Source: Patescibacteria group bacterium (GTDB taxonomy: Bacteria > Patescibacteriota > UBA1384 > DATEAH01). Taken from it: 64,000 nucleotides of DNA. Under the pieces are notes generated by a model, which had not been told where the DNA came from, ran no database searches, and was given only the letters and a program-made list of their open reading frames with translations. Numbering within the stretch: the first letter of the stretch is position 1; the number at the start of each line of letters is the position of its first letter. This document shows positions 633 through 64,000 of the stretch, piece by piece. Position numbers and translations under genes: made by a program. The DNA lies in the NCBI GenBank assembly GCA_035288465.1, contig DATEAH010000005.1, positions 67,636-131,635 on the forward strand, read 5' to 3'.

Positions 633-1160
633 TCATTTTTTATACTCTAATTTTTCCTTTTCATACTCAAGAAAAGTCTTATACGATTGAAAATCTTTTA
701 ATAAAGAAGATTGTGCTTTTAGATTTGGGATAATAATTCTTCGCAATTTTCTTTTTGAGATCAAGTATTTATAAAGGCAACGAAAATCTCCATCTCCCGA
801 GACAATTACCGCTTTATCGTAATTGTTGTATTCGATCGCGGCGGAATATAAAACCAATTCAGCATCAATATTTCCTTTTGGTTTGCCTAAATTATCTTTG
901 GTGGTTGGTTTAAAAATTAGTTTATACCCGCAAGATTGAAGCTGTTGATACATTTTTGATTGTTCTTTAATATAGCCGATAAAAAGGAAAGCTTTTGAAA
1001 CACGGAATTTGTCAGTTAGATAAATTCTGAATTTTTTAAAATCGAGCCGCCAACCTTTATAAATTTTCTTCCCCTTTTTATTAAAAAGGTCTTTATTCGT
1101 CCCAAGATTTAAGTTTTGGCTATCAATGAAAGCATAAATTATGGGAAATCTTTTTTTCAT
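633..1160 (-). CDS. NYN-domain (LabA/PIN-like) predicted ribonuclease
   Basis: 175 aa; FIDSQN...SGDGDF motif pattern of NYN/DUF88 family; RBS ggaga upstream of ATG. Confidence 0.6.
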   Translation of the reverse strand: MKKRFPIIYAFIDSQNLNLGTNKDLFNKKGKKIYKGWRLDFKKFRIYLTDKFRVSKAFLFIGYIKEQSKMYQQLQSCGYKLIFKPTTKDNLGKPKGNIDAELVLYSAAIEYNNYDKAVIVSGDGDFRCLYKYLISKRKLRRIIIPNLKAQSSLLKDFQSYKTFLEYEKEKLEYKK

Positions 1161-1270
1161 ATTTTTTCTCCAGCTTTAATCCTACTCCAAAATCAGCCGA
1201 AAAGCAATGTTATTTTTTGACAAAAGAGCTTATTTTTTGTAAAATAAAGTGGCTCAAAAAGGAGATGAGA

Positions 1271-1858
1271 AATGTGGGCATCCTGAACAGGTTGTTTGGC
1301 GGTTCAAATCCTTTAGATCAAAGAGTTAAACAGATCGCCGATGAATTGGGTAGAAAATGCCGAGAATATCTTCAACAGCACCAGATTAACCCACAAACAG
1401 AAGCAATTAATATTGGTACTGCTTGTGGAATTATAAGAAAAGCCCATCACCCCGCACAATTTACTGATATTGCTTTTGACCTAATGACTTATCCTTCGGA
1501 AGTAGCTTATGGAATTGTAAATTATTTTGACTATTTTACCCCACAGCTCGGATTTATCCCGGTTGGCACGATAATGGTTGCTTTATCAAAAATTGAATCG
1601 TTGTATCCGGGAGGCGTAATAATCCGGCTATCATTTGCCAAAGAAAATCCAGAACTTATGGAGGTTATTGAGTCAAAAGAAGAAAGAATCAAAAGAGCCG
1701 GCAAAATAATTGCGGTTGGCATCCTTTTTACTCAAGAAACTCTCCGAGGAGCAAGGACAATGTACAAAAATAATGTCTTTGATCCATTGGTTCAAGCGGC
1801 AACCATCGAAGAATTGCGGAATTTTGACCCAGAAGTTGCTAGCGCAATTATCAGTTAA
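1271..1858 (+). CDS. hypothetical protein
   Basis: ORF 1217-1858; start moved to ATG 1271 preceded by aaaggag RBS; no recognizable domain. Confidence 0.5.
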   Translation, partial: NVGILNRLFGGSNPLDQRVKQIADELGRKCREYLQQHQINPQTEAINIGTACGIIRKAHHPAQFTDIAFDLMTYPSEVAYGIVNYFDYFTPQLGFIPVGTIMVALSKIESLYPGGVIIRLSFAKENPELMEVIESKEERIKRAGKIIAVGILFTQETLRGARTMYKNNVFDPLVQAATIEELRNFDPEVASAIIS

Positions 1859-1895
1859 GCCCTAAGAGGCTTCGCCCTTTCAGGGCTTTTTTTAT
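1859..1895 (+). terminator. rho-independent terminator (plus strand)
   Basis: gggcttcgccctttcagggc hairpin then TTTTTTT. Confidence 0.6.
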
Positions 1896-1936
1896 AATAA
1901 AAAAACCCGTTGGGGGTGGTGAGACCCGAAACGGGT
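1896..1936 (-). terminator. rho-independent terminator (minus strand)
   Basis: cccgtttcgggtctcaccacccccaacggg hairpin followed by T-run on minus strand. Confidence 0.6.
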
Positions 1937-1958
1937 GGATAATAAAGAAAAGTTGAAA

Positions 1959-2978
1959 TTAGATGCCGAGGATTAGTTTGGCTTGATTAATAAGATCTTG
2001 AGTTAGTGATATTGGCTTGAGTTGATATGCTTTCTCGAGATTGCCGAGAGCTTCCTTGATCATTGCCTTATCTTGAGTTAAAACTCCGAGTCGAAATTGT
2101 GAACGACCATATCTCATATAGATATCGGGTGTTTTTTTATAATTTTCAACATAAGATTTACAGTAAACATTTATCAATTGGTATCGAGAAATATTATATT
2201 TATTGAAGCTTTCTTCGAGGTCTTTTAAGTGTTGTTTGATACTATCAGGTACCCCTACGAAGGGATCCCAATTAAAAGTTTTTTCTTCTTGAATATATAA
2301 TTCATCTGCTTCCATGCTTATTTCAAGAAACCATATATTAATAAGACACCCTATTACTGTTAAATCTTGTGGATCTGATATCTTAGAAAATTGTTGTTTA
2401 AATGATGCGAATGCCTCAGATCCAACATCTCGATAACTAGTAAGCTTAGCTTCATCTAGCTTGCGTTGACAAGCGACACAAAGAGAAATCATCTTTACAA
2501 CTTCTGTAGTCTCTTTGGGGTGAGAGAAAACTCCTTCATCTATAATTATTTTTTCGGTTGCAGCTGAATCAGCAAGATATTGTTGGCTAAAGTCTGGATC
2601 TTTAGAGAATAAAAAAGACTTGGCATCCCAGACTTCATTTTTTTCATTATTGGCCAAATATATCGACGCAGAAAGAGTATAAGCCATTACTTTTTTTCCT
2701 AAAGCATTAGAAATTTTCGCCGACCATCTTATTAATTCAAAATCTTCATTGAATTCTATATCATTTTCTTTGTCTTCTTTCTCTAAAATATTTAACATAT
2801 TTACGGCATCTATATATTTCCCTTCATCAAAATATCCCTTCATAAGAGCTAGTGAAATAATTCTGGACATTTCGTAATCTGATACTACAAACTTATCTTC
2901 GGCATAAATTATGTTGGAGAATACTAATATTAATAGGACAAAGAGTGCGAGGAAAATGCTGCGTGGCGCTTGTTTCAC
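1959..2978 (-). CDS. secreted hypothetical protein (signal peptide)
   Basis: 339 aa; N-terminal hydrophobic signal MKQAPRSIFLALFVLLILVFSNIIYA; gaggtga RBS. Confidence 0.6.
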   Translation of the reverse strand: MKQAPRSIFLALFVLLILVFSNIIYAEDKFVVSDYEMSRIISLALMKGYFDEGKYIDAVNMLNILEKEDKENDIEFNEDFELIRWSAKISNALGKKVMAYTLSASIYLANNEKNEVWDAKSFLFSKDPDFSQQYLADSAATEKIIIDEGVFSHPKETTEVVKMISLCVACQRKLDEAKLTSYRDVGSEAFASFKQQFSKISDPQDLTVIGCLINIWFLEISMEADELYIQEEKTFNWDPFVGVPDSIKQHLKDLEESFNKYNISRYQLINVYCKSYVENYKKTPDIYMRYGRSQFRLGVLTQDKAMIKEALGNLEKAYQLKPISLTQDLINQAKLILGI

Positions 2979-3128
2979 TTGTCTTCACCTCGGGTTGGTA
3001 AGGTACAAGGCGCTTGGGTCTTGCCTTTTGTTCAATTGACATTATTTTAGCTTTATTGCCTAAAATTGTCAAGAAAAAACCCACCTTAGGTTTGGTACCC
3101 CTGGGTGGGCAAAAAAATAGTGACAAGG

Positions 3129-3659
3129 TTATTCGGTGGCAGAAGCCAAGATGTTAATGCCACCGACTAATGGTAGTTGGAGACAATTGTTTGGAATTTG
3201 ATAATTCTTCTTGACAATTATGGCTGAAATTGCACCTTCGTGCGACGCAGTCAGCCAATAAGGTTCTTCCCCAATGGGAATGCGAGCATCATACAATGGT
3301 TGAATCCAATATTGTCCGCCAGCAAACGCATAAACAGCGACGTCATGCTGATCAGGATTAACATTAAAGGTTCGCCCCTCAACTACTTTGACAATTGGTT
3401 CGTAAATGTTAGTATCATCAACATGGACATTGCCATAATAGGCTTGGGTGCCGTCGATAATGATTTCGGGTTGATCTGAGGGTGTGTGCGATATTGGCGA
3501 AATACTGATTTTGTATATCGGCAATAAGGTAATTTCCCTAACTGACGAATTACTATAAACATAACCGACACTATAACCGCGTTGCTCCGAAGATGCGCAA
3601 CCGGCAACGAAGATAGTGATTAGTGCCAAAATGGCGAGCACAGCCAACACGTGTTTCAT
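3129..3659 (-). CDS. hypothetical lipoprotein
   Basis: Start at MKHVLAVLAILALITIFVAGC (lipobox VAGC) with gagagga RBS; ORF track gives longer 3129-3698. Confidence 0.6.
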   Translation of the reverse strand: MKHVLAVLAILALITIFVAGCASSEQRGYSVGYVYSNSSVREITLLPIYKISISPISHTPSDQPEIIIDGTQAYYGNVHVDDTNIYEPIVKVVEGRTFNVNPDQHDVAVYAFAGGQYWIQPLYDARIPIGEEPYWLTASHEGAISAIIVKKNYQIPNNCLQLPLVGGINILASATE

Positions 3660-3707
3660 CTGGATCTCGTCCTCTCGGGGTAGGTTGTTAATGTTCAAAT
3701 TAGTTAA

Positions 3708-3736
3708 ATTTTACACTTATAGTATAATTTTGTCAA
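3708..3736 (-). promoter_or_regulatory. sigma70-like promoter TTGACA-17-TAAAAT for lipoprotein gene
   Basis: Minus-strand TTGACAaaattatactataagtgTAAAAT about 40 nt upstream of start codon. Confidence 0.5.
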
Positions 3737-3737
3737 T

Positions 3738-3842
3738 AAGAACCTCTCGCTTTGCACGAGAACCTTATTGCTTCGCTTACGCGCTACCCTTTCGGACTGC
3801 GGCTTCGCCTTGTAAACGACGCAATAAAAAAGCCGCACTTGG
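3738..3842. repeat. GC-rich structured repeat copy 2
   Basis: About 90% identity to 418-522; abuts the -35 box of the lipoprotein promoter. Confidence 0.8.
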
Positions 3843-3883
3843 GCTGGATGAGCCGGGCGCGGCATTTGAAAATGGAATAATTA

Positions 3884-4501
3884 TTATCCCAAATCTATAT
3901 CGTCTTCGGGATCAAAACCCTCAAATAAACGCTCAAAGATCGCAGCTTCCTCTGATGACAGATTGTTGATTTGAGCAATATCAATACCATAATTAGCGAG
4001 AACCTCCCGAATCGTCGGCAAGAAAAGATCGCTAGCCTGATCAAGTTTATCCTTAAGTTCTGGCGTCATGGCCTCGGCGGGAATATGAACCATAATACTT
4101 CCCCATGGGGCACTGACCAAAAGAGAAATAACTGACTTTACCCTAATCCCCAAATCTTCCATTGTTTTGACAGTCTCACTCTCTCGACCTTCGAGCAATT
4201 TATTTTCAATCTGGCCTAAGAAACTAAAGACTTCCTTAATATCTTCAAGATGAGCGTATTCATCCGGATGTTCGCGACAATAAACCTTAAAGTCATCAAT
4301 CATTTTGCTTTTTTCGCGATTAAACATCGCGTTAGTTATCCCGCCGGTAATCATTCCATTAAATAATTCGGAAATCATTGGATGTTGTCGCCAAGCATTT
4401 GCTCGTTGTTCGACAAAAATTTCAATGCAGACACAGATCTCTTCGTAGGTCAAGCTGATCGTCTCCTTTGGGGTGATATACTGAAAAAACAGATATATCA
4501 T
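3884..4501 (-). CDS. hypothetical protein
   Basis: 205 aa ORF, no recognizable motif. Confidence 0.5.
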   Translation of the reverse strand: MIYLFFQYITPKETISLTYEEICVCIEIFVEQRANAWRQHPMISELFNGMITGGITNAMFNREKSKMIDDFKVYCREHPDEYAHLEDIKEVFSFLGQIENKLLEGRESETVKTMEDLGIRVKSVISLLVSAPWGSIMVHIPAEAMTPELKDKLDQASDLFLPTIREVLANYGIDIAQINNLSSEEAAIFERLFEGFDPEDDIDLG

Positions 4502-4603
4502 ACTTTTTTGATTAAATAAAGTCAGGAAAAAAAGAGGCGGTGCAAATTTTGTAATTTGAACTGCCTCGGGCAGAAAAAGATTAGAAATTAATTATTAAGT
4601 TGG

Positions 4604-5296
4604 TTATGTAGCGACAGTTGGCTCTGGAACTTCCGGTTCGGCTGGAATTTCTGGTTCAAATTGTTCATAGCCTAGTTGCTGACAAACTTTGATTATGTAT
4701 TGGAGGTTCTCTAATTTACCGCCATTTTGCTCGAAGTATTCCAAACGCACTGCTGGCGACGTTACAATAATATCTTGTCCAAAACCACCCGTTAGAAGAT
4801 GATAACGCCACTCACCCATATTGATTTCGCAACGTTCCGGATTATCAAATTCCTTATTGTCACAGGCATCGCTATAGAAAGTGAACCGGCCTGAATATTC
4901 AAGTCCCACAAATCCTTGAGCAATCTTGATCGCTTCCTCAAATTTCATCCCGAAATCATGGCCTACCTGGCTAAAGGAGACAAAATCCGGCCACATCCTG
5001 TCAACTGCAATAGCATAATAATTCGCTGGCTTGTAATTCTGTGTATCTGCATCATATCCACCTTCAATTATCGGGCTATCCGTATGGTTAAAACGAGCAA
5101 TTTGTAATCCTGTTCCAACAACGACTCTTCCGGTATCAATTAAGTCTTGTGGAGCTTCAAGATAAGCATTAAACCAGCGTTGATTTCTTCGAGCCTCTTT
5201 CCAGCCGATTACCACCGCGTTAATGACCGTGCAAACTGCGTTCTTTAGTCGCATGTGATCTGGAAACTTGAAAAACAGTTCTTCGGTTGCGCTCAT
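4604..5296 (-). CDS. hypothetical protein
   Basis: 230 aa ORF with aaggagg RBS; acidic Pro/Glu-rich C-terminal tail; locally elevated GC. Confidence 0.55.
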   Translation of the reverse strand: MSATEELFFKFPDHMRLKNAVCTVINAVVIGWKEARRNQRWFNAYLEAPQDLIDTGRVVVGTGLQIARFNHTDSPIIEGGYDADTQNYKPANYYAIAVDRMWPDFVSFSQVGHDFGMKFEEAIKIAQGFVGLEYSGRFTFYSDACDNKEFDNPERCEINMGEWRYHLLTGGFGQDIIVTSPAVRLEYFEQNGGKLENLQYIIKVCQQLGYEQFEPEIPAEPEVPEPTVAT

Positions 5297-9164: not shown

Positions 9165-9540
9165 ATATCTTGAGTGGATAATAAGCCGAGTTTTGTTCCG
9201 CCAATTGGCGGAAGATAATCATCTATCTTTGCGGTGGGTCCCAAAATGTCCAAAACGAGCAGCTTCATTACCATATGGTGACATTTCAGTCCATTCCACC
9301 TTGCACCGGATAGGGTTTACCACTTTCCGATGTTACCATTGGAAAGAGAGGCTTCTTAGGTCCTCACTTTTCACCCTTACCACGCCTCATCGGCGGGCGG
9401 TTTAGTTTCTGTGACACTTTCCCTCGTTCGCACGGCCCTTCATCCCCAAATGTTAATCTGAAGGGTGCGGGGTATCCTGCTCTGTGGTGCTCGGACTTTC
9501 CTCTCCACCTCATCGGTGGAGCGATTATCTAATCCACTCA
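9165..9540 (-). ncRNA. rnpB: RNase P RNA (bacterial type A)
   Basis: Minus strand contains GAGGAAAGTCCGagCaCC (P4 5' strand) and ACAaAACtCGGCTTAT (P4 3' strand); P1 helix gtcttgagtggat/atccactcaaga; length about 375 nt. Confidence 0.85.
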
Positions 9541-52751: not shown

Positions 52752-52823
52752 AGCCGTCTCCCGGATTTGAACCGGGGACCTTCACTTTACGAAAGTGCTG
52801 CTCTACCGCTGAGCTAAGACGGC
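52752..52823 (-). tRNA. tRNA-Thr (anticodon CGT)
   Basis: acceptor gccgtct/agacggc, anticodon loop ttCGTaa, T-arm ccccg-gttcaaa-tccgg; no CCA. Confidence 0.8.
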
Positions 52824-52872
52824 AAAATCTGAGTAATTTCAATCTTATTTTAGCACTTTTTGGCAATCTTCA

Positions 52873-52931
52873 CAATTTAAAAAGCGGGATACCGGGATCG
52901 AACTGGCGCCTCCACCTTACCTGCCCGCCAT
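52873..52931 (-). repeat. degenerate tandem copy of tRNA-Gly 3' half immediately downstream of tRNA-Gly
   Basis: gtggaggcgccagttcgatcccggtatcccgct vs tRNA-Gly aagaggtcgccggttcgaatccggtctaccgct; preceded by GGCGCC palindrome; cannot fold into full cloverleaf. Confidence 0.7.
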
Positions 52932-53003
52932 CGATAGAATGAGCGGTAGACCGGATTCGAACCGGCGACCTCTTCCTTGGGAAGGAAGCATTCTGCCACT
53001 GAA
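52932..53003 (-). tRNA. tRNA-Gly (anticodon CCC)
   Basis: acceptor gcggtag/ctaccgc, anticodon stem cttcc/ggaag, loop ttCCCaa, T-arm cgccg-gttcgaa-tccgg. Confidence 0.85.
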
Positions 53004-53170
53004 CTACTACCGCACTTCTTATATATTAGCAAATTCAAGGCTAATAAAAAAGGAAGGCCATACTCGGATGATGCGGGGGTGATAGCAAAAATCTGCTATC
53101 CATCTTCCGAACACGGCCTTTTCGCCTGTTGGTAGGGTTTTCTGCTGGTTGGGATGGGTTGGGTCGCGGT

Positions 53171-53497
53171 CTATCGGATGAGTGGTTCGACGGACAACTT
53201 GATCCCGGTGCGTTCCTGGCCATCAATGACCAGATTAGCGAAAGCCGGCCGGCAGATCAAGTCAATCCCTGAGGGAGCCAAGTAGCCGCGCGCGACAGCG
53301 ATCGCCTTAACGGCCTGATTCAAGGCGCCGGCGCCGATGGACATGATTTCTGCCCGACCCTTTTCACGGATGGTACCGGCGATTGCGCCAGCGACTAAAT
53401 TGGTATTGGACTTGCTCGAGACCTTGAGGATGCCGTTTGACATTTGCCGCGGGGACGACGATGACTTTACTGCACTCGGTGCAACAGATCCTGCCAT
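53171..53497 (-). CDS. spoVS: SpoVS-family protein (stage V sporulation protein S homolog)
   Basis: ILKVSSKSNTNLVAGAIAGTIREKGRAEIMSIGAGALNQAVKAIAVARGYLAPSGIDLICRPAF...GIKLSVEP closely parallels SpoVS; start may be internal Met 53443; GC about 58%. Confidence 0.8.
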   Translation of the reverse strand: MAGSVAPSAVKSSSSPRQMSNGILKVSSKSNTNLVAGAIAGTIREKGRAEIMSIGAGALNQAVKAIAVARGYLAPSGIDLICRPAFANLVIDGQERTGIKLSVEPLIR

Positions 53498-53595
53498 TTC
53501 TGCGACTCTCCCTTCAGTTGTGTGGCGGGTTTTGCGACTGGTTTGTGGCTGTCCCCCAGGCTGAAGTCAGCAGAAAATCCCTTGAAACTGCTTTA

Positions 53596-53624
53596 TTTAT
53601 AGCAAAAAACTCTGGAAATGTCAA
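53596..53624 (-). promoter_or_regulatory. consensus sigma70 promoter TTGACA-17-TATAAA upstream of spoVS
   Basis: Minus-strand ttgacatttccagagttttttgctataaa in AT-rich DNA immediately before GC-rich leader. Confidence 0.5.
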
Positions 53625-53693
53625 GATTAAATTAAAAAATACCCTAAATAAAGGGTAAAAAATCATTTAAATCTTGATAAAAAAATATATAAA

Positions 53694-54290: not shown

Positions 54291-54397
54291 TTTCCCTCAC
54301 TCTTTCTTGATTTAATTTTATCAAAGACAAGACATAAAATAAAGCCAAATCATATTTACAAATACGAATTTTATGGTAAAATAAGATTACAAATCAT

Positions 54398-54472
54398 GGG
54401 GCCGTGGTGTAGCCTGGTTAACACGCGAGCTTGTCAAGCTTGAGATCGCCAGTTCAAATCTGGTCGGCCCCG
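54398..54472 (+). tRNA. tRNA-Asp (anticodon GTC)
   Basis: acceptor ggggccg/cggcccc, D-stem gtgt/acac, anticodon stem cgagc/gcttg, loop ttGTCaa. Confidence 0.85.
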
Positions 54473-54550
54473 GTTTTAAAATCTTTCTTTCGAAAGATTT
54501 TTCTTTATTTTAAGAGTAAATTTTGATAAAATAGAACAAGGGATTAAAAA

Positions 54551-62370: not shown

Positions 62371-62399
62371 TTGACAAATTAGATTATTTTTGATATAAT
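62371..62399 (+). promoter_or_regulatory. perfect-consensus sigma70 promoter TTGACA-17-TATAAT
   Basis: ttgacaaattagattatttttgatataat directly upstream of GC-rich transcription unit. Confidence 0.55.
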
Positions 62400-62469
62400 G
62401 TGAAAATTGCGAAAGCAAGGCCGAAAATCCGCCTTTCGGTGGATGATTCTGCTGCAAAGGGGTGTTGTA

Positions 62470-63786
62470 ATGTCTAGGTTGTATCCGGTTGTTCTGCTAG
62501 TGCTGGTTGTCTCCGTCTTCTCTGGCTGCGGAGGTAGCAATGAGAGTCTGATTCCACCAGTTGGTGGACAGGTTGTCACCACGCCACCGACCGGCCGCGT
62601 CATCGCCTTTGGCGAGGTTGCGAACCTTGCCCGCGGCACGACCATGCACCTCCGGCTGAACCGACAGGGAACAGAGGTACGCGAGTACGAGGTGGCGTTC
62701 CTGTCAACGTTCACACAAGGTCCGGATCACCTCATTGTCTGCCAGACCCCCGCCAGCTTGGCGGTGGGAGCCGGGGATTCCGGATCCCCTCTGATGACGT
62801 CCGATGATCAACTCGCTGGCGCGCTGGCTTTTGGCTGGGACGGCGATGACCACCGGTTCATGGCCCGGTCCATCGACGACATGCTCCGGCTTACCCCGGC
62901 GTCACCCGATCGCGGGATTACATTCAAGGAGCAGGAGATCCCGCTGTCCTATTTCCTGCAAGGAGTCTCTATCCCCACCCTTCAACGGCTAGCAACCCTG
63001 GATCGGACAGGGGTGTCTGACAAGTTCCAGATAATCCCTACGAATCCAGGGAGCAACCGACTGGCTACCTCGGTGCCCATGCCAGGTCAGTCAATCTCGG
63101 TGAATTACATCACCGGACCGCTGGTGACCGGCGGAGCAGTCGGGACCATCACCCATCAAACAGGTGATGACCAGTGGCTGATCTTCGGCCATCAGCTGGA
63201 CAACTTCGGTGAAAGGGCGTTGCCGGTTTCTCTCGCGTCGATGGACGTGATGGTCGAGACGACCTTCGGGTCGTTTAAGCAAGCTCATCCACTCAACCAG
63301 CCAATCGGAACTCTAGTCGAGGACCGGATGTACGGCTGTCGCGTTGACCCTAACCGAAACCCCGAGACGTTCCCGGTGACGGTTCGAGTCAACTACAACG
63401 ACAAGACCGAGAAGTACATCCATCAGGTCGCTGCCGACAAGAGCAGTGGTGTTGAGTTGTACTTCATCTTGGTCGGCATCCTGGCACCACTCGACCAGGT
63501 CTTCAATAAGTATGGACCTGGTACGGCCGAGGGCACATTGATTCTTCGTCTCCAGGGCGCAGGCACACAAACCTACGAAATCACCGTGCCCGAGCCGGCC
63601 ATCGACTACGGCGGCGACGAAGGTTACTACGAGGAGAATCCTTCTCCTCCGTATGTGTCGGATCTTTCCTTGGGTGTCGCGGAGGTGGTGATGACGAAGA
63701 TCTTTGACCTTGCACGGTACCATCCAGGTGTTTCTTTCGCCCGGGTGGAACTCAACGTCACACTCCACGACTTCAAGCCGACATAA
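62470..63786 (+). CDS. GC-rich lipoprotein with trypsin-like serine-protease signature
   Basis: Start MSRLYPVVLLVLVVSVFSGCGG (lipobox) after aaagggg RBS; GAGDSGSPLM resembles S1 GDSGGP catalytic-Ser motif; about 58% GC vs about 35% background. Confidence 0.55.
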   Translation: MSRLYPVVLLVLVVSVFSGCGGSNESLIPPVGGQVVTTPPTGRVIAFGEVANLARGTTMHLRLNRQGTEVREYEVAFLSTFTQGPDHLIVCQTPASLAVGAGDSGSPLMTSDDQLAGALAFGWDGDDHRFMARSIDDMLRLTPASPDRGITFKEQEIPLSYFLQGVSIPTLQRLATLDRTGVSDKFQIIPTNPGSNRLATSVPMPGQSISVNYITGPLVTGGAVGTITHQTGDDQWLIFGHQLDNFGERALPVSLASMDVMVETTFGSFKQAHPLNQPIGTLVEDRMYGCRVDPNRNPETFPVTVRVNYNDKTEKYIHQVAADKSSGVELYFILVGILAPLDQVFNKYGPGTAEGTLILRLQGAGTQTYEITVPEPAIDYGGDEGYYEENPSPPYVSDLSLGVAEVVMTKIFDLARYHPGVSFARVELNVTLHDFKPT

Positions 63787-64000
63787 TCACCGAGAAGGGA
63801 GGAAAACGCTTGCACGGTCAGAAGATCAGATTCTGCCGAGCTGCATGGAAAAGGCTGACAAGGGCGATTATCACCCACCAGCCCATCGAGGTCATCCTCA
63901 CGCGGCTTGCCGAGAAAGATCGAGCCGTGAAAGAAGCGGCGATTTGGTGCAGACGGCACCACGCCCATCCCGGCCTGACCATGTCACGGCTCCGAATCGC

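Follow-up and report, generated by a model that had tools for sequence, protein, structure and literature searches.

The spoVS locus

The window analysed here is a 64-kb stretch of DNA (38.1% G+C (GC) overall) from a Patescibacteria group bacterium (assembly GCA_035288465.1, contig DATEAH010000005.1), and the element in question is a short GC-rich unit on its minus strand that carries a single gene, a homolog of spoVS. The interval 53041-53640, singled out in a first-pass annotation made from the sequence alone, encloses one complete transcription unit, since promoter, leader, coding sequence (CDS) and terminator hairpin all lie inside it (Table 1). The promoter hexamers, TTGACA at 53624-53619 and TATAAA at 53601-53596, match 11 of 12 consensus positions, so the promoter is near-consensus but not strictly "perfect", as it had been called; because the final -10 base is an A, a simple scanner does not call it. 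The pattern TTGACA-N16-18-TATAA occurs at two sites in the whole window against 0.2 expected, a number that none of 100 shuffles reaches, and these two sites are the promoters of the spoVS unit and of a second GC-rich unit described below.

The leader is CA-rich and U-poor (U 17%), with the Shine-Dalgarno sequence GGGAG at 53508-53512, 10 nt ahead of the spoVS ATG. It is not a structured element: leader folding is not above shuffles either in the window (z=0.10) or in L009, a 952-bp contig with a related locus (z=0.50), and the whole spoVS mRNA gives only z=-1.3, on which grounds we rejected both a structured 5' leader and a globally structured mRNA. The nested 3' hairpin with its T-run, by contrast, stands as first described: the fold at 53054-53120, which contains GATAGC...GCTATC, reaches -34.5 kcal/mol (z=-4.5), and the T-run lies at 53043-51. 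The L009 terminator is built alike, except that its inner hairpin differs (z=-7.2).

Just 29 nt past the terminator, tRNA-Gly(CCC) begins. A TGnTAAnAT-like extended -10 ahead of this tRNA is kept in related loci, which suggests that the tRNA-Gly/tRNA-Thr pair may have its own promoter. The motif (TGCTAATAT, TGCTAAACT and TGATAAAAT) lies about 12 nt before tRNA-Gly in the window (53014-53042), in L009 (620-652) and in a Candidatus Berkelbacteria genome, L010 (5345-5375). The first-pass picture of a unit wedged between tRNA genes is accurate for tRNA-Gly, whereas tRNA-Asp lies about 770 nt upstream of the spoVS promoter, past a gene of 198 amino acids (aa). Rfam searches at gathering and at permissive thresholds returned only tRNAs in the islet, so we rejected a known RNA family as its content. 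Elsewhere in the window, a bacterial RNase P RNA of class A (175 bits) lies at 9167-9540 on the minus strand.

Table 1. Features of the spoVS locus and of the second GC-rich unit (window coordinates; the CDS includes its stop codon)
Feature	Position	Strand	Remarks
tRNA-Thr(CGU)	52752..52823	-	conserved neighbour
Degenerate copy of tRNA-Gly(CCC) 3' half	52883..52918	-	30/37 identical
tRNA-Gly(CCC)	52941..53013	-	conserved downstream neighbour
Two-tier intrinsic terminator	53043..53120	-	outer stem, C-rich internal loop, inner hairpin GAUAGC...GCUAUC, CC, UUUUUUAUU
3' spacer, stop codon to hairpin	53121..53170	-	47-50 nt; A 38%, C 43%, G 15%, U 4% (81% A+C)
spoVS CDS	53171..53497	-	108 aa; 57% GC, GC at third codon positions (GC3) 0.66
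SpoVS/Alba-fold domain	53186..53431	-	residues 23-104; beta-alpha-beta-alpha-beta-beta
Lineage-specific N-terminal tail	53432..53497	-	residues 1-22, MAGSVAPSAVKSSSSPRQMSNG; predicted disordered; L009 counterpart MAGTVAPNATKSSS...
5' leader	53498..53589	-	about 92 nt, from a putative start site up to the ATG (53497)
Sigma-70-type promoter	53596..53624	-	TTGACA-17-TATAAA, TGn extended -10, AT-rich; kept in L009
Terminator (hairpin + T-run) of the upstream 198-aa gene	53640..53657	-	upstream limit of the spoVS unit
tRNA-Asp(GUC)	54397..54473	+	conserved divergent upstream neighbour
Second GC-rich unit	62371..64000, continuing about 50 nt beyond the window end	+	L178 9929-11640

A SpoVS protein with an Alba-like fold

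The product is unexceptional within a known family, and the initial identification as a SpoVS homolog was correct. It matches PF04232 over profile positions 2-83 of 83 with 120.3 bits (cut-off 24; E=3e-35), and the solved Thermus thermophilus SpoVS structures 2EH1/2EK0 over residues 24-104 (E=2.3e-25). An AlphaFold (AF2) model built from 29 homologs has a mean predicted local distance difference test score (pLDDT) of 83.8, above 88 in the domain, with residues 1-22 disordered; Foldseek pairs it with SpoVS structures at target-normalised template modelling scores (TM-scores) of 0.86-0.92, then with Alba proteins. Profile, solved structures and the Alba-like fold all agree on family membership. 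The best structural match is PDB 9a7h, an integrative model in which B. subtilis SpoVS is complexed with YunD.

SpoVS has been placed in the Alba superfamily, and nucleic-acid binding has been predicted for it (PMC2732212, PMC11621453). Our model is in line with this placement: archaeal and plant Alba proteins, which bind RNA or act in chromatin, are matched in Foldseek with probability 1.0 at TM-scores of about 0.5-0.6, although sequence identity to them is just 12-16% and nucleic-acid binding by SpoVS is a prediction. With known members of its own family (PF04232; B. subtilis SpoVS; 2EH1/2EK0) the protein shares the beta-alpha-beta-alpha-beta-beta core, the invariant IGAGALNQAVKAIA motif and, with 2EH1, 54% identity. 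It departs from them in its predicted 22-residue disordered N-terminal tail and in reading LICRPAF instead of LICIPAF, while its gene has a GC3 twice the host level, lies upstream of a tRNA-Gly/tRNA-Thr operon rather than beside rny-ymdB, and belongs to a phylum not known to sporulate. The recA-(recX)-rny-ymdB-spoVS context, which is typical of the family without defining it, is absent here, where the order is a 198-aa membrane protein, spoVS, tRNA-Gly and tRNA-Thr. In high-GC relatives spoVS sits beside the genes for the YmdB phosphoesterase and RNase Y, an adjacency lost at the Patescibacteria locus.

Is a sporulation protein out of place in such an organism, as the first-pass annotation supposed? 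It is not: SpoVS occurs in many phyla that do not sporulate (PMC2732212, PMC11621453), it has native composition in a genome of the CPR2 group and it is frequent on viral contigs; because the family is widespread in non-spore-formers (PMC2732212), a role in stage V of endospore formation does not define membership. We saw no sporulation machinery in the window. SpoVS is among the best-conserved proteins that we sampled, with a ratio of nonsynonymous to synonymous divergence (dN/dS) of about 0.02 in the group of high-GC relatives. The viral relatives are encoded on 583 of 600 candidate stretches (IMG/VR contigs L181-L260) at 45-62% identity to the query. A phage origin was rejected, since viral SpoVS relatives are at most 62% identical, below the cellular ones. 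Our literature searches returned nothing on SpoVS in Patescibacteria or on the pattern described here.

A few details of the gene deserve mention. The NCBI entry HLC38758.1 starts at an internal ATG and has 90 aa (window 53443-53497); the 108-aa form is favoured by the Shine-Dalgarno sequence and the N-terminal tail, both conserved in L009 and P0129. Codon 98 (53204-53206) is polymorphic, encoding Gly (GGG) in the window and Trp (TGG) in L001 and L002, at a position that is Ala in at least 90% of aligned homologs. A tandem-duplicated, two-domain SpoVS of 189 aa (P0002/P0003; L003 5001-5570, GCA_053996615.1) occurs in a genome of 41% GC, at a native GC3 of 0.34.

A sharp compositional anomaly

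The GC-rich islet reported at first pass is real. GC amounts to 54.3% over 53041-53600, 57.2% in the CDS, 53.8% in the leader and 53.7% in the 3' untranslated region (UTR), and the original "about 58%" fits the CDS; in 100-nt windows the unit peaks at 61% GC against 18-34% just outside. Across 65 non-overlapping open reading frames (ORFs), GC3 is 0.34±0.08, and the only outliers are spoVS (0.66) and the ORF spanning 62407-63786 (0.68). Codon usage bears out the contrast with the host: codon choice in spoVS is inverted (AAG 6 and AAA 0; ATC 9 and ATT 2), and C-ending and G-ending codons are both enriched, including AAG, CAG, CCG and CGG.

Two simple causes of this GC-richness were rejected. Encoded with the codon preferences of the host, the same protein would give a CDS of 46.9% GC, against 57.2% observed, so amino-acid composition accounts for only part of the excess. 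Nor do highly expressed genes of this genome show the same GC, an outcome that the first-pass annotation had named as refuting its reading: GC3 is ordinary in translation initiation factor IF3 (0.39), ribosomal protein L20 (0.39) and BipA (0.36), so that high expression does not account for the excess either. As a compositional sign of horizontal acquisition, the deviation thus goes beyond the effects of protein sequence and of expression.

The anomaly also stands out across genomes. Over the genomes of 78 species and 80 metagenome loci, the GC3 of spoVS closely follows the GC of its flanks (slope 1.77, residual standard deviation 0.07); the residual is +0.42 for the window (about 6 standard deviations) and +0.475 for the Berkelbacteria representative, and at most +0.23 for every other locus. 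The CPR2 genome has a spoVS of the LVCKPSF type behind its own near-consensus promoter, with a native GC3 of 0.39. Because this copy has native composition, GC-richness is not intrinsic to spoVS in Patescibacteria.

Conservation of the unit and its position

Misassembly, a concern raised at first pass, is excluded by the recurrence of the same junctions on 15-17 independent contigs. Across both junctions the window matches a 160-kb ENA contig and a contig from JGI at every base but one, so that three assemblies agree there except for 1 nt; the exact SpoVS protein occurs on 15 contigs and the protein of the second GC-rich unit on 17, and at NCBI both, entered as HLC38758.1 and HLC38768.1, are found in one "Patescibacteria group bacterium" metagenome-assembled genome.

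The gene order tRNA-Asp (divergent), spoVS, tRNA-Gly(CCC), tRNA-Thr(CGU), small membrane protein, GT2 and PMT_2 is common to the window and L010, and L009 covers the core of it, from spoVS through tRNA-Gly and tRNA-Thr into the first part of the gene for the small membrane protein. The neighbours have diverged far between the window and L010, with 49% identity in GT2, 29% in the membrane protein and differences in the tRNA stems as well. In all three loci spoVS has a GC3 of 0.66-0.73 in backgrounds of 36-39% GC. Altogether the unit is found at this one site in the window, L001, L002, L178-180, L009 and L010-12. We found no empty site, and hence no presence/absence polymorphism, among a small sample of relatives, and a metagenome scan gave no additional loci of the Berkelbacteria type.

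Between the window and L009, the promoter, the start of the leader, the Shine-Dalgarno sequence, the tail MAG[ST]VAP[SN]A and the outer stem of the terminator are held in common, and the flanks align with z>10. Synonymous divergence (dS) between the two is about 1.5-1.7 and dN/dS about 0.12; the spoVS ORF is, by this measure, under purifying selection. The L010 region past tRNA-Asp (754-4718), which encodes a GIY-YIG protein, a SpoVG-like protein and a large serine recombinase besides small ORFs, is probably an integrated element next to the locus. Positions 4702-4801 of L010 have 53% GC and are not significantly structured (z=-1.1).

Relatives in high-GC genomes

All three Patescibacteria proteins read LICRPAF where most SpoVS proteins read LIC[IV]PAF. 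This signature is common to a sizeable group encoded on contigs of 60-68% GC, where spoVS follows recA-recX-rny-ymdB, as in Bacillus; one further carrier lies on a low-GC contig, L263, with near-native GC3. The window protein is 82% identical to that of L005 from the high-GC group and 76% identical to the L010 protein, and the Berkelbacteria protein is 88-92% identical to those of L095-L098 (92% to L096). The RecA of L005 is closest to named Armatimonadota at 66-74% identity, so that the donor label is tentative. At the DNA level, synonymous third positions are 31-53% identical in the focal comparisons and dS is 1.3-1.9 or unmeasurable. Recent transfer was rejected on this ground, since synonymous sites are saturated against all sampled relatives.

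The phylogeny called for at first pass gave a divided answer. In a neighbour-joining (NJ) tree of 83 sites with 200 bootstraps, the window groups with L009 in 85/200 and the LICRPAF group is recovered in 81/200, values to be read with the shortness of the alignment in mind; the Patescibacteria copies form one clade in only 1/200.

A second GC-rich unit

The window contains one further segment of this kind. From 62400 on, a stretch of 1.65 kb has 57% GC, against 16-30% directly upstream, and it follows the promoter TTGACA-17-TATAAT at 62371-62399. Its first ORF (start at 62443 or 62470, end at 63786) encodes a lipoprotein of 447 or 438 aa with a GDSGSP motif, and the third-position composition of this gene matches that of spoVS. 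A 77-aa ORF follows, and the unit closes, slightly beyond the end of the window, with a two-tier hairpin terminator (z=-5.7). Among 5.8 billion proteins only 6 homologs of the lipoprotein could be detected; Peptidase_S55 (SpoIVB) matches occur in its distant relatives, and the lipoprotein itself is weakly SpoIVB/S55-like. In another genome, a homolog with 37% identity is likewise encoded behind an extended -10 promoter, by a gene whose GC exceeds that of the flank upstream. One 14-mer, TTGACAAATTAGAT, recurs unchanged in the promoter of this second unit (62371-62384) and in the Berkelbacteria spoVS promoter (L010 4905-4918), which may reflect a promoter type of the clade, or chance.

Origin of the spoVS unit

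We propose that the unit works as an expression cassette complete in itself, with one gene, whose product is a SpoVS-family protein, a predicted nucleic-acid binder with a Ser/Ala-rich tail predicted to be disordered. A near-consensus sigma-70 promoter with an extended -10 would drive high expression of a transcript that begins with an unstructured, CA-rich leader with a strong Shine-Dalgarno sequence, continues through the CDS into a CA-rich, U-poor spacer and ends at the two-tier hairpin and U-run. The terminator would insulate this transcript from the downstream tRNA-Gly/tRNA-Thr operon, itself behind a putative extended -10 promoter. The gene would have entered by lateral transfer into an ancestor of a Berkelbacteria-related Patescibacteria lineage, from a donor of high GC (60-68%) with a LICRPAF SpoVS, the recA-recX-rny-ymdB-spoVS context and a RecA nearest to Armatimonadota, and the AT-rich host DNA at the upstream junction would have supplied the promoter. 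Such a cassette would be older than the split between the window and L009 lineages, with the same site occupied in the Candidatus Berkelbacteria genome.

How well does this account hold? The LICRPAF signature, the best identities and the contrast with the CPR2 copy make import from a lineage of high GC more likely than native descent, and we regard the spoVS unit as probably foreign; it is also old, fixed, syntenically conserved and unrelated to tRNA-directed integration. That the cassette was acquired only once, long ago, from a high-GC lineage is a proposition on which we stand evenly divided, and several observations count against it. No trace of donor DNA is left, nucleotide identity being about 70% with no flank similarity to any high-GC relative; the idea that donor flanks were carried along was rejected, the donor 3' flanks being G-rich besides. 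There are no mobility genes nearby in the window. The Berkelbacteria copy nests in one subgroup of the high-GC proteins (A) and the window copy lies nearer another (B), and because the NJ tree fails to unite the Patescibacteria copies, as its single supporting bootstrap shows, a single acquisition is not secure. The naming of the donor group depends on RecA identities as low as 66-74%. Finally, after one ancient transfer neutral amelioration should have erased the GC excess, which persists with no demonstrated cause.

This last point separates the unit from the usual picture of transferred genes. Lawrence and Ochman reportedly proposed the amelioration model for compositionally atypical, horizontally acquired genes. 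Like such genes, spoVS has GC and codon usage far from those of the host and its closest homologs in composition-matched genomes. Unlike them, it keeps its syntenic place in lineages that have diverged deeply, its synonymous sites have turned over while its composition is still off host values, and its boundaries coincide with those of a transcription unit, with no mobility genes or attachment (att) sites.

Two other histories would each explain part of this pattern, and we consider both unlikely. The locus may have been filled or overwritten repeatedly, with the window/L009 and Berkelbacteria lineages receiving GC-rich alleles from different high-GC donors, whether by in-situ replacement of a resident copy or at an insertion-prone site; incomplete amelioration would then suffice, and no compositional selection would be required. 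The failure of the Patescibacteria copies to form a clade speaks for this scenario, as do the affinities of L010 to subgroup A (88-92%) and of the window to subgroup B (82%, against 76% to L010), the absence of the N-terminal tail in L010, and L010 flanks that share nothing with those of the window or L009. It fits poorly, however, with the identical position of all copies among the same three tRNA genes, with a nucleotide identity of about 70% to any donor, which is low for homologous replacement, and with a GC3 still at 0.66-0.73 in both the window and L009 at a dS of about 1.6. The subgroups are told apart by conservative, homoplasy-prone K/R, S/T and I/V swaps, and the window and L009 are long branches that may mislead NJ. 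Alternatively, the gene could be native and vertically inherited, its GC-rich, U-poor composition having arisen in place through selection on the transcript for stability or translation at very high expression. Such an origin would suit the conserved locus and the fact that, within 64 kb, full-consensus promoters occur just twice, each time at the head of one of the only two GC-rich units. The 3' spacers of the window and L009 align poorly, yet both have 2-4% U and 74-81% A+C, whereas the 3' flanks in the donor group are G-rich, not CA-rich, and the CPR2 spoVS has an A/C-rich 3' UTR too; this shared spacer composition hints at, but does not prove, a constraint on transcript composition. Against native descent stand the ordinary composition of IF3, L20 and BipA, the native GC3 of the CPR2 gene in spite of its consensus-like promoter, an enrichment of both C- and G-ending codons that is unlike translational selection, the unremarkable fold of the whole mRNA, and a protein signature and best identities that point to high-GC genomes.

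The reading suggested by the first pass, that a tRNA-targeting integrase recently inserted the islet and left the tRNA-Gly fragment as a scar, now appears very improbable. As in tRNA-linked genomic islands, foreign-like composition goes together with adjoining tRNA genes and a partial duplicate of the tRNA-Gly 3' half, which is real. The duplicate does not flank the islet, however: it lies downstream of the tRNA, on the side away from spoVS, within a 117-nt insert (52824-52940) between tRNA-Gly and tRNA-Thr that is missing in L009 and L010, both of which bear the islet and have only 2-3 nt between these tRNAs. We read the fragment as probably the scar of a different, lineage-specific integration or deletion. 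No integrase or recombinase was found among the neighbours within ±5 kb in the window or L001, and the L010 serine recombinase lies outside the unit. Direct repeats bounding the unit amount to a 12/13-nt AT-rich match at chance level; att-like repeats were rejected accordingly, the 13-nt match between promoter and terminator loop not being kept in L009. Genomic islands of this type also differ in their presence/absence polymorphism, which was not seen for the spoVS unit, and a layout conserved in two diverged lineages deprives the tRNA neighbours of their value as evidence of integration; the unit is present in three diverged lineages, with synonymous sites saturated against every relative. 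Still less credible, to the point of being negligible, is the idea that the unit is a chimera of assembly, or that a structured, GC-rich non-coding RNA has been taken for a gene. Composition does change sharply at both edges, and GC-rich patches in AT-rich Patescibacteria are usually RNA genes, but the agreement of three assemblies and the recurrence of both proteins on many contigs argue against a chimera, and the tRNA-only Rfam result, folding of leader and mRNA no better than shuffles and a full-length SpoVS ORF under purifying selection argue against an RNA. In sum, the original observation is confirmed and its interpretation was half right: foreign-like composition and relatives in 60-68% GC genomes support horizontal acquisition, but not as recent tRNA-targeted cargo.

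If import from a high-GC lineage is the better account, why has the composition lasted? We think it possible, if somewhat doubtful, that the GC-rich, U-poor composition is actively maintained and that AT-rich Patescibacteria keep a few compositionally distinct cassettes behind their strongest promoters, of which the window would hold two, spoVS and the lipoprotein unit. Maintenance could come from selection on mRNA composition, for instance through escape from AU-directed decay or autoregulation by the Alba-like product, or from repeated overwriting of the locus by alleles acquired from neighbours or hosts of high GC.

Implications

SpoVS is a very widespread small protein of unassigned function. 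That reduced Patescibacteria genomes keep it as a conserved unit of one gene behind a strong promoter speaks for a core housekeeping role in nucleic-acid handling over one in sporulation. The more unusual part of the finding is that 64 kb of DNA hold two GC-rich units, each starting exactly at a full-consensus promoter and one of them deeply conserved; the persistence of their composition and the pairing of two consensus promoters with two GC-rich units are both worth following. If the composition is maintained, it bears on amelioration, mRNA stability and DNA uptake in episymbiotic bacteria, and it could also point to the partners with which these organisms exchange DNA.

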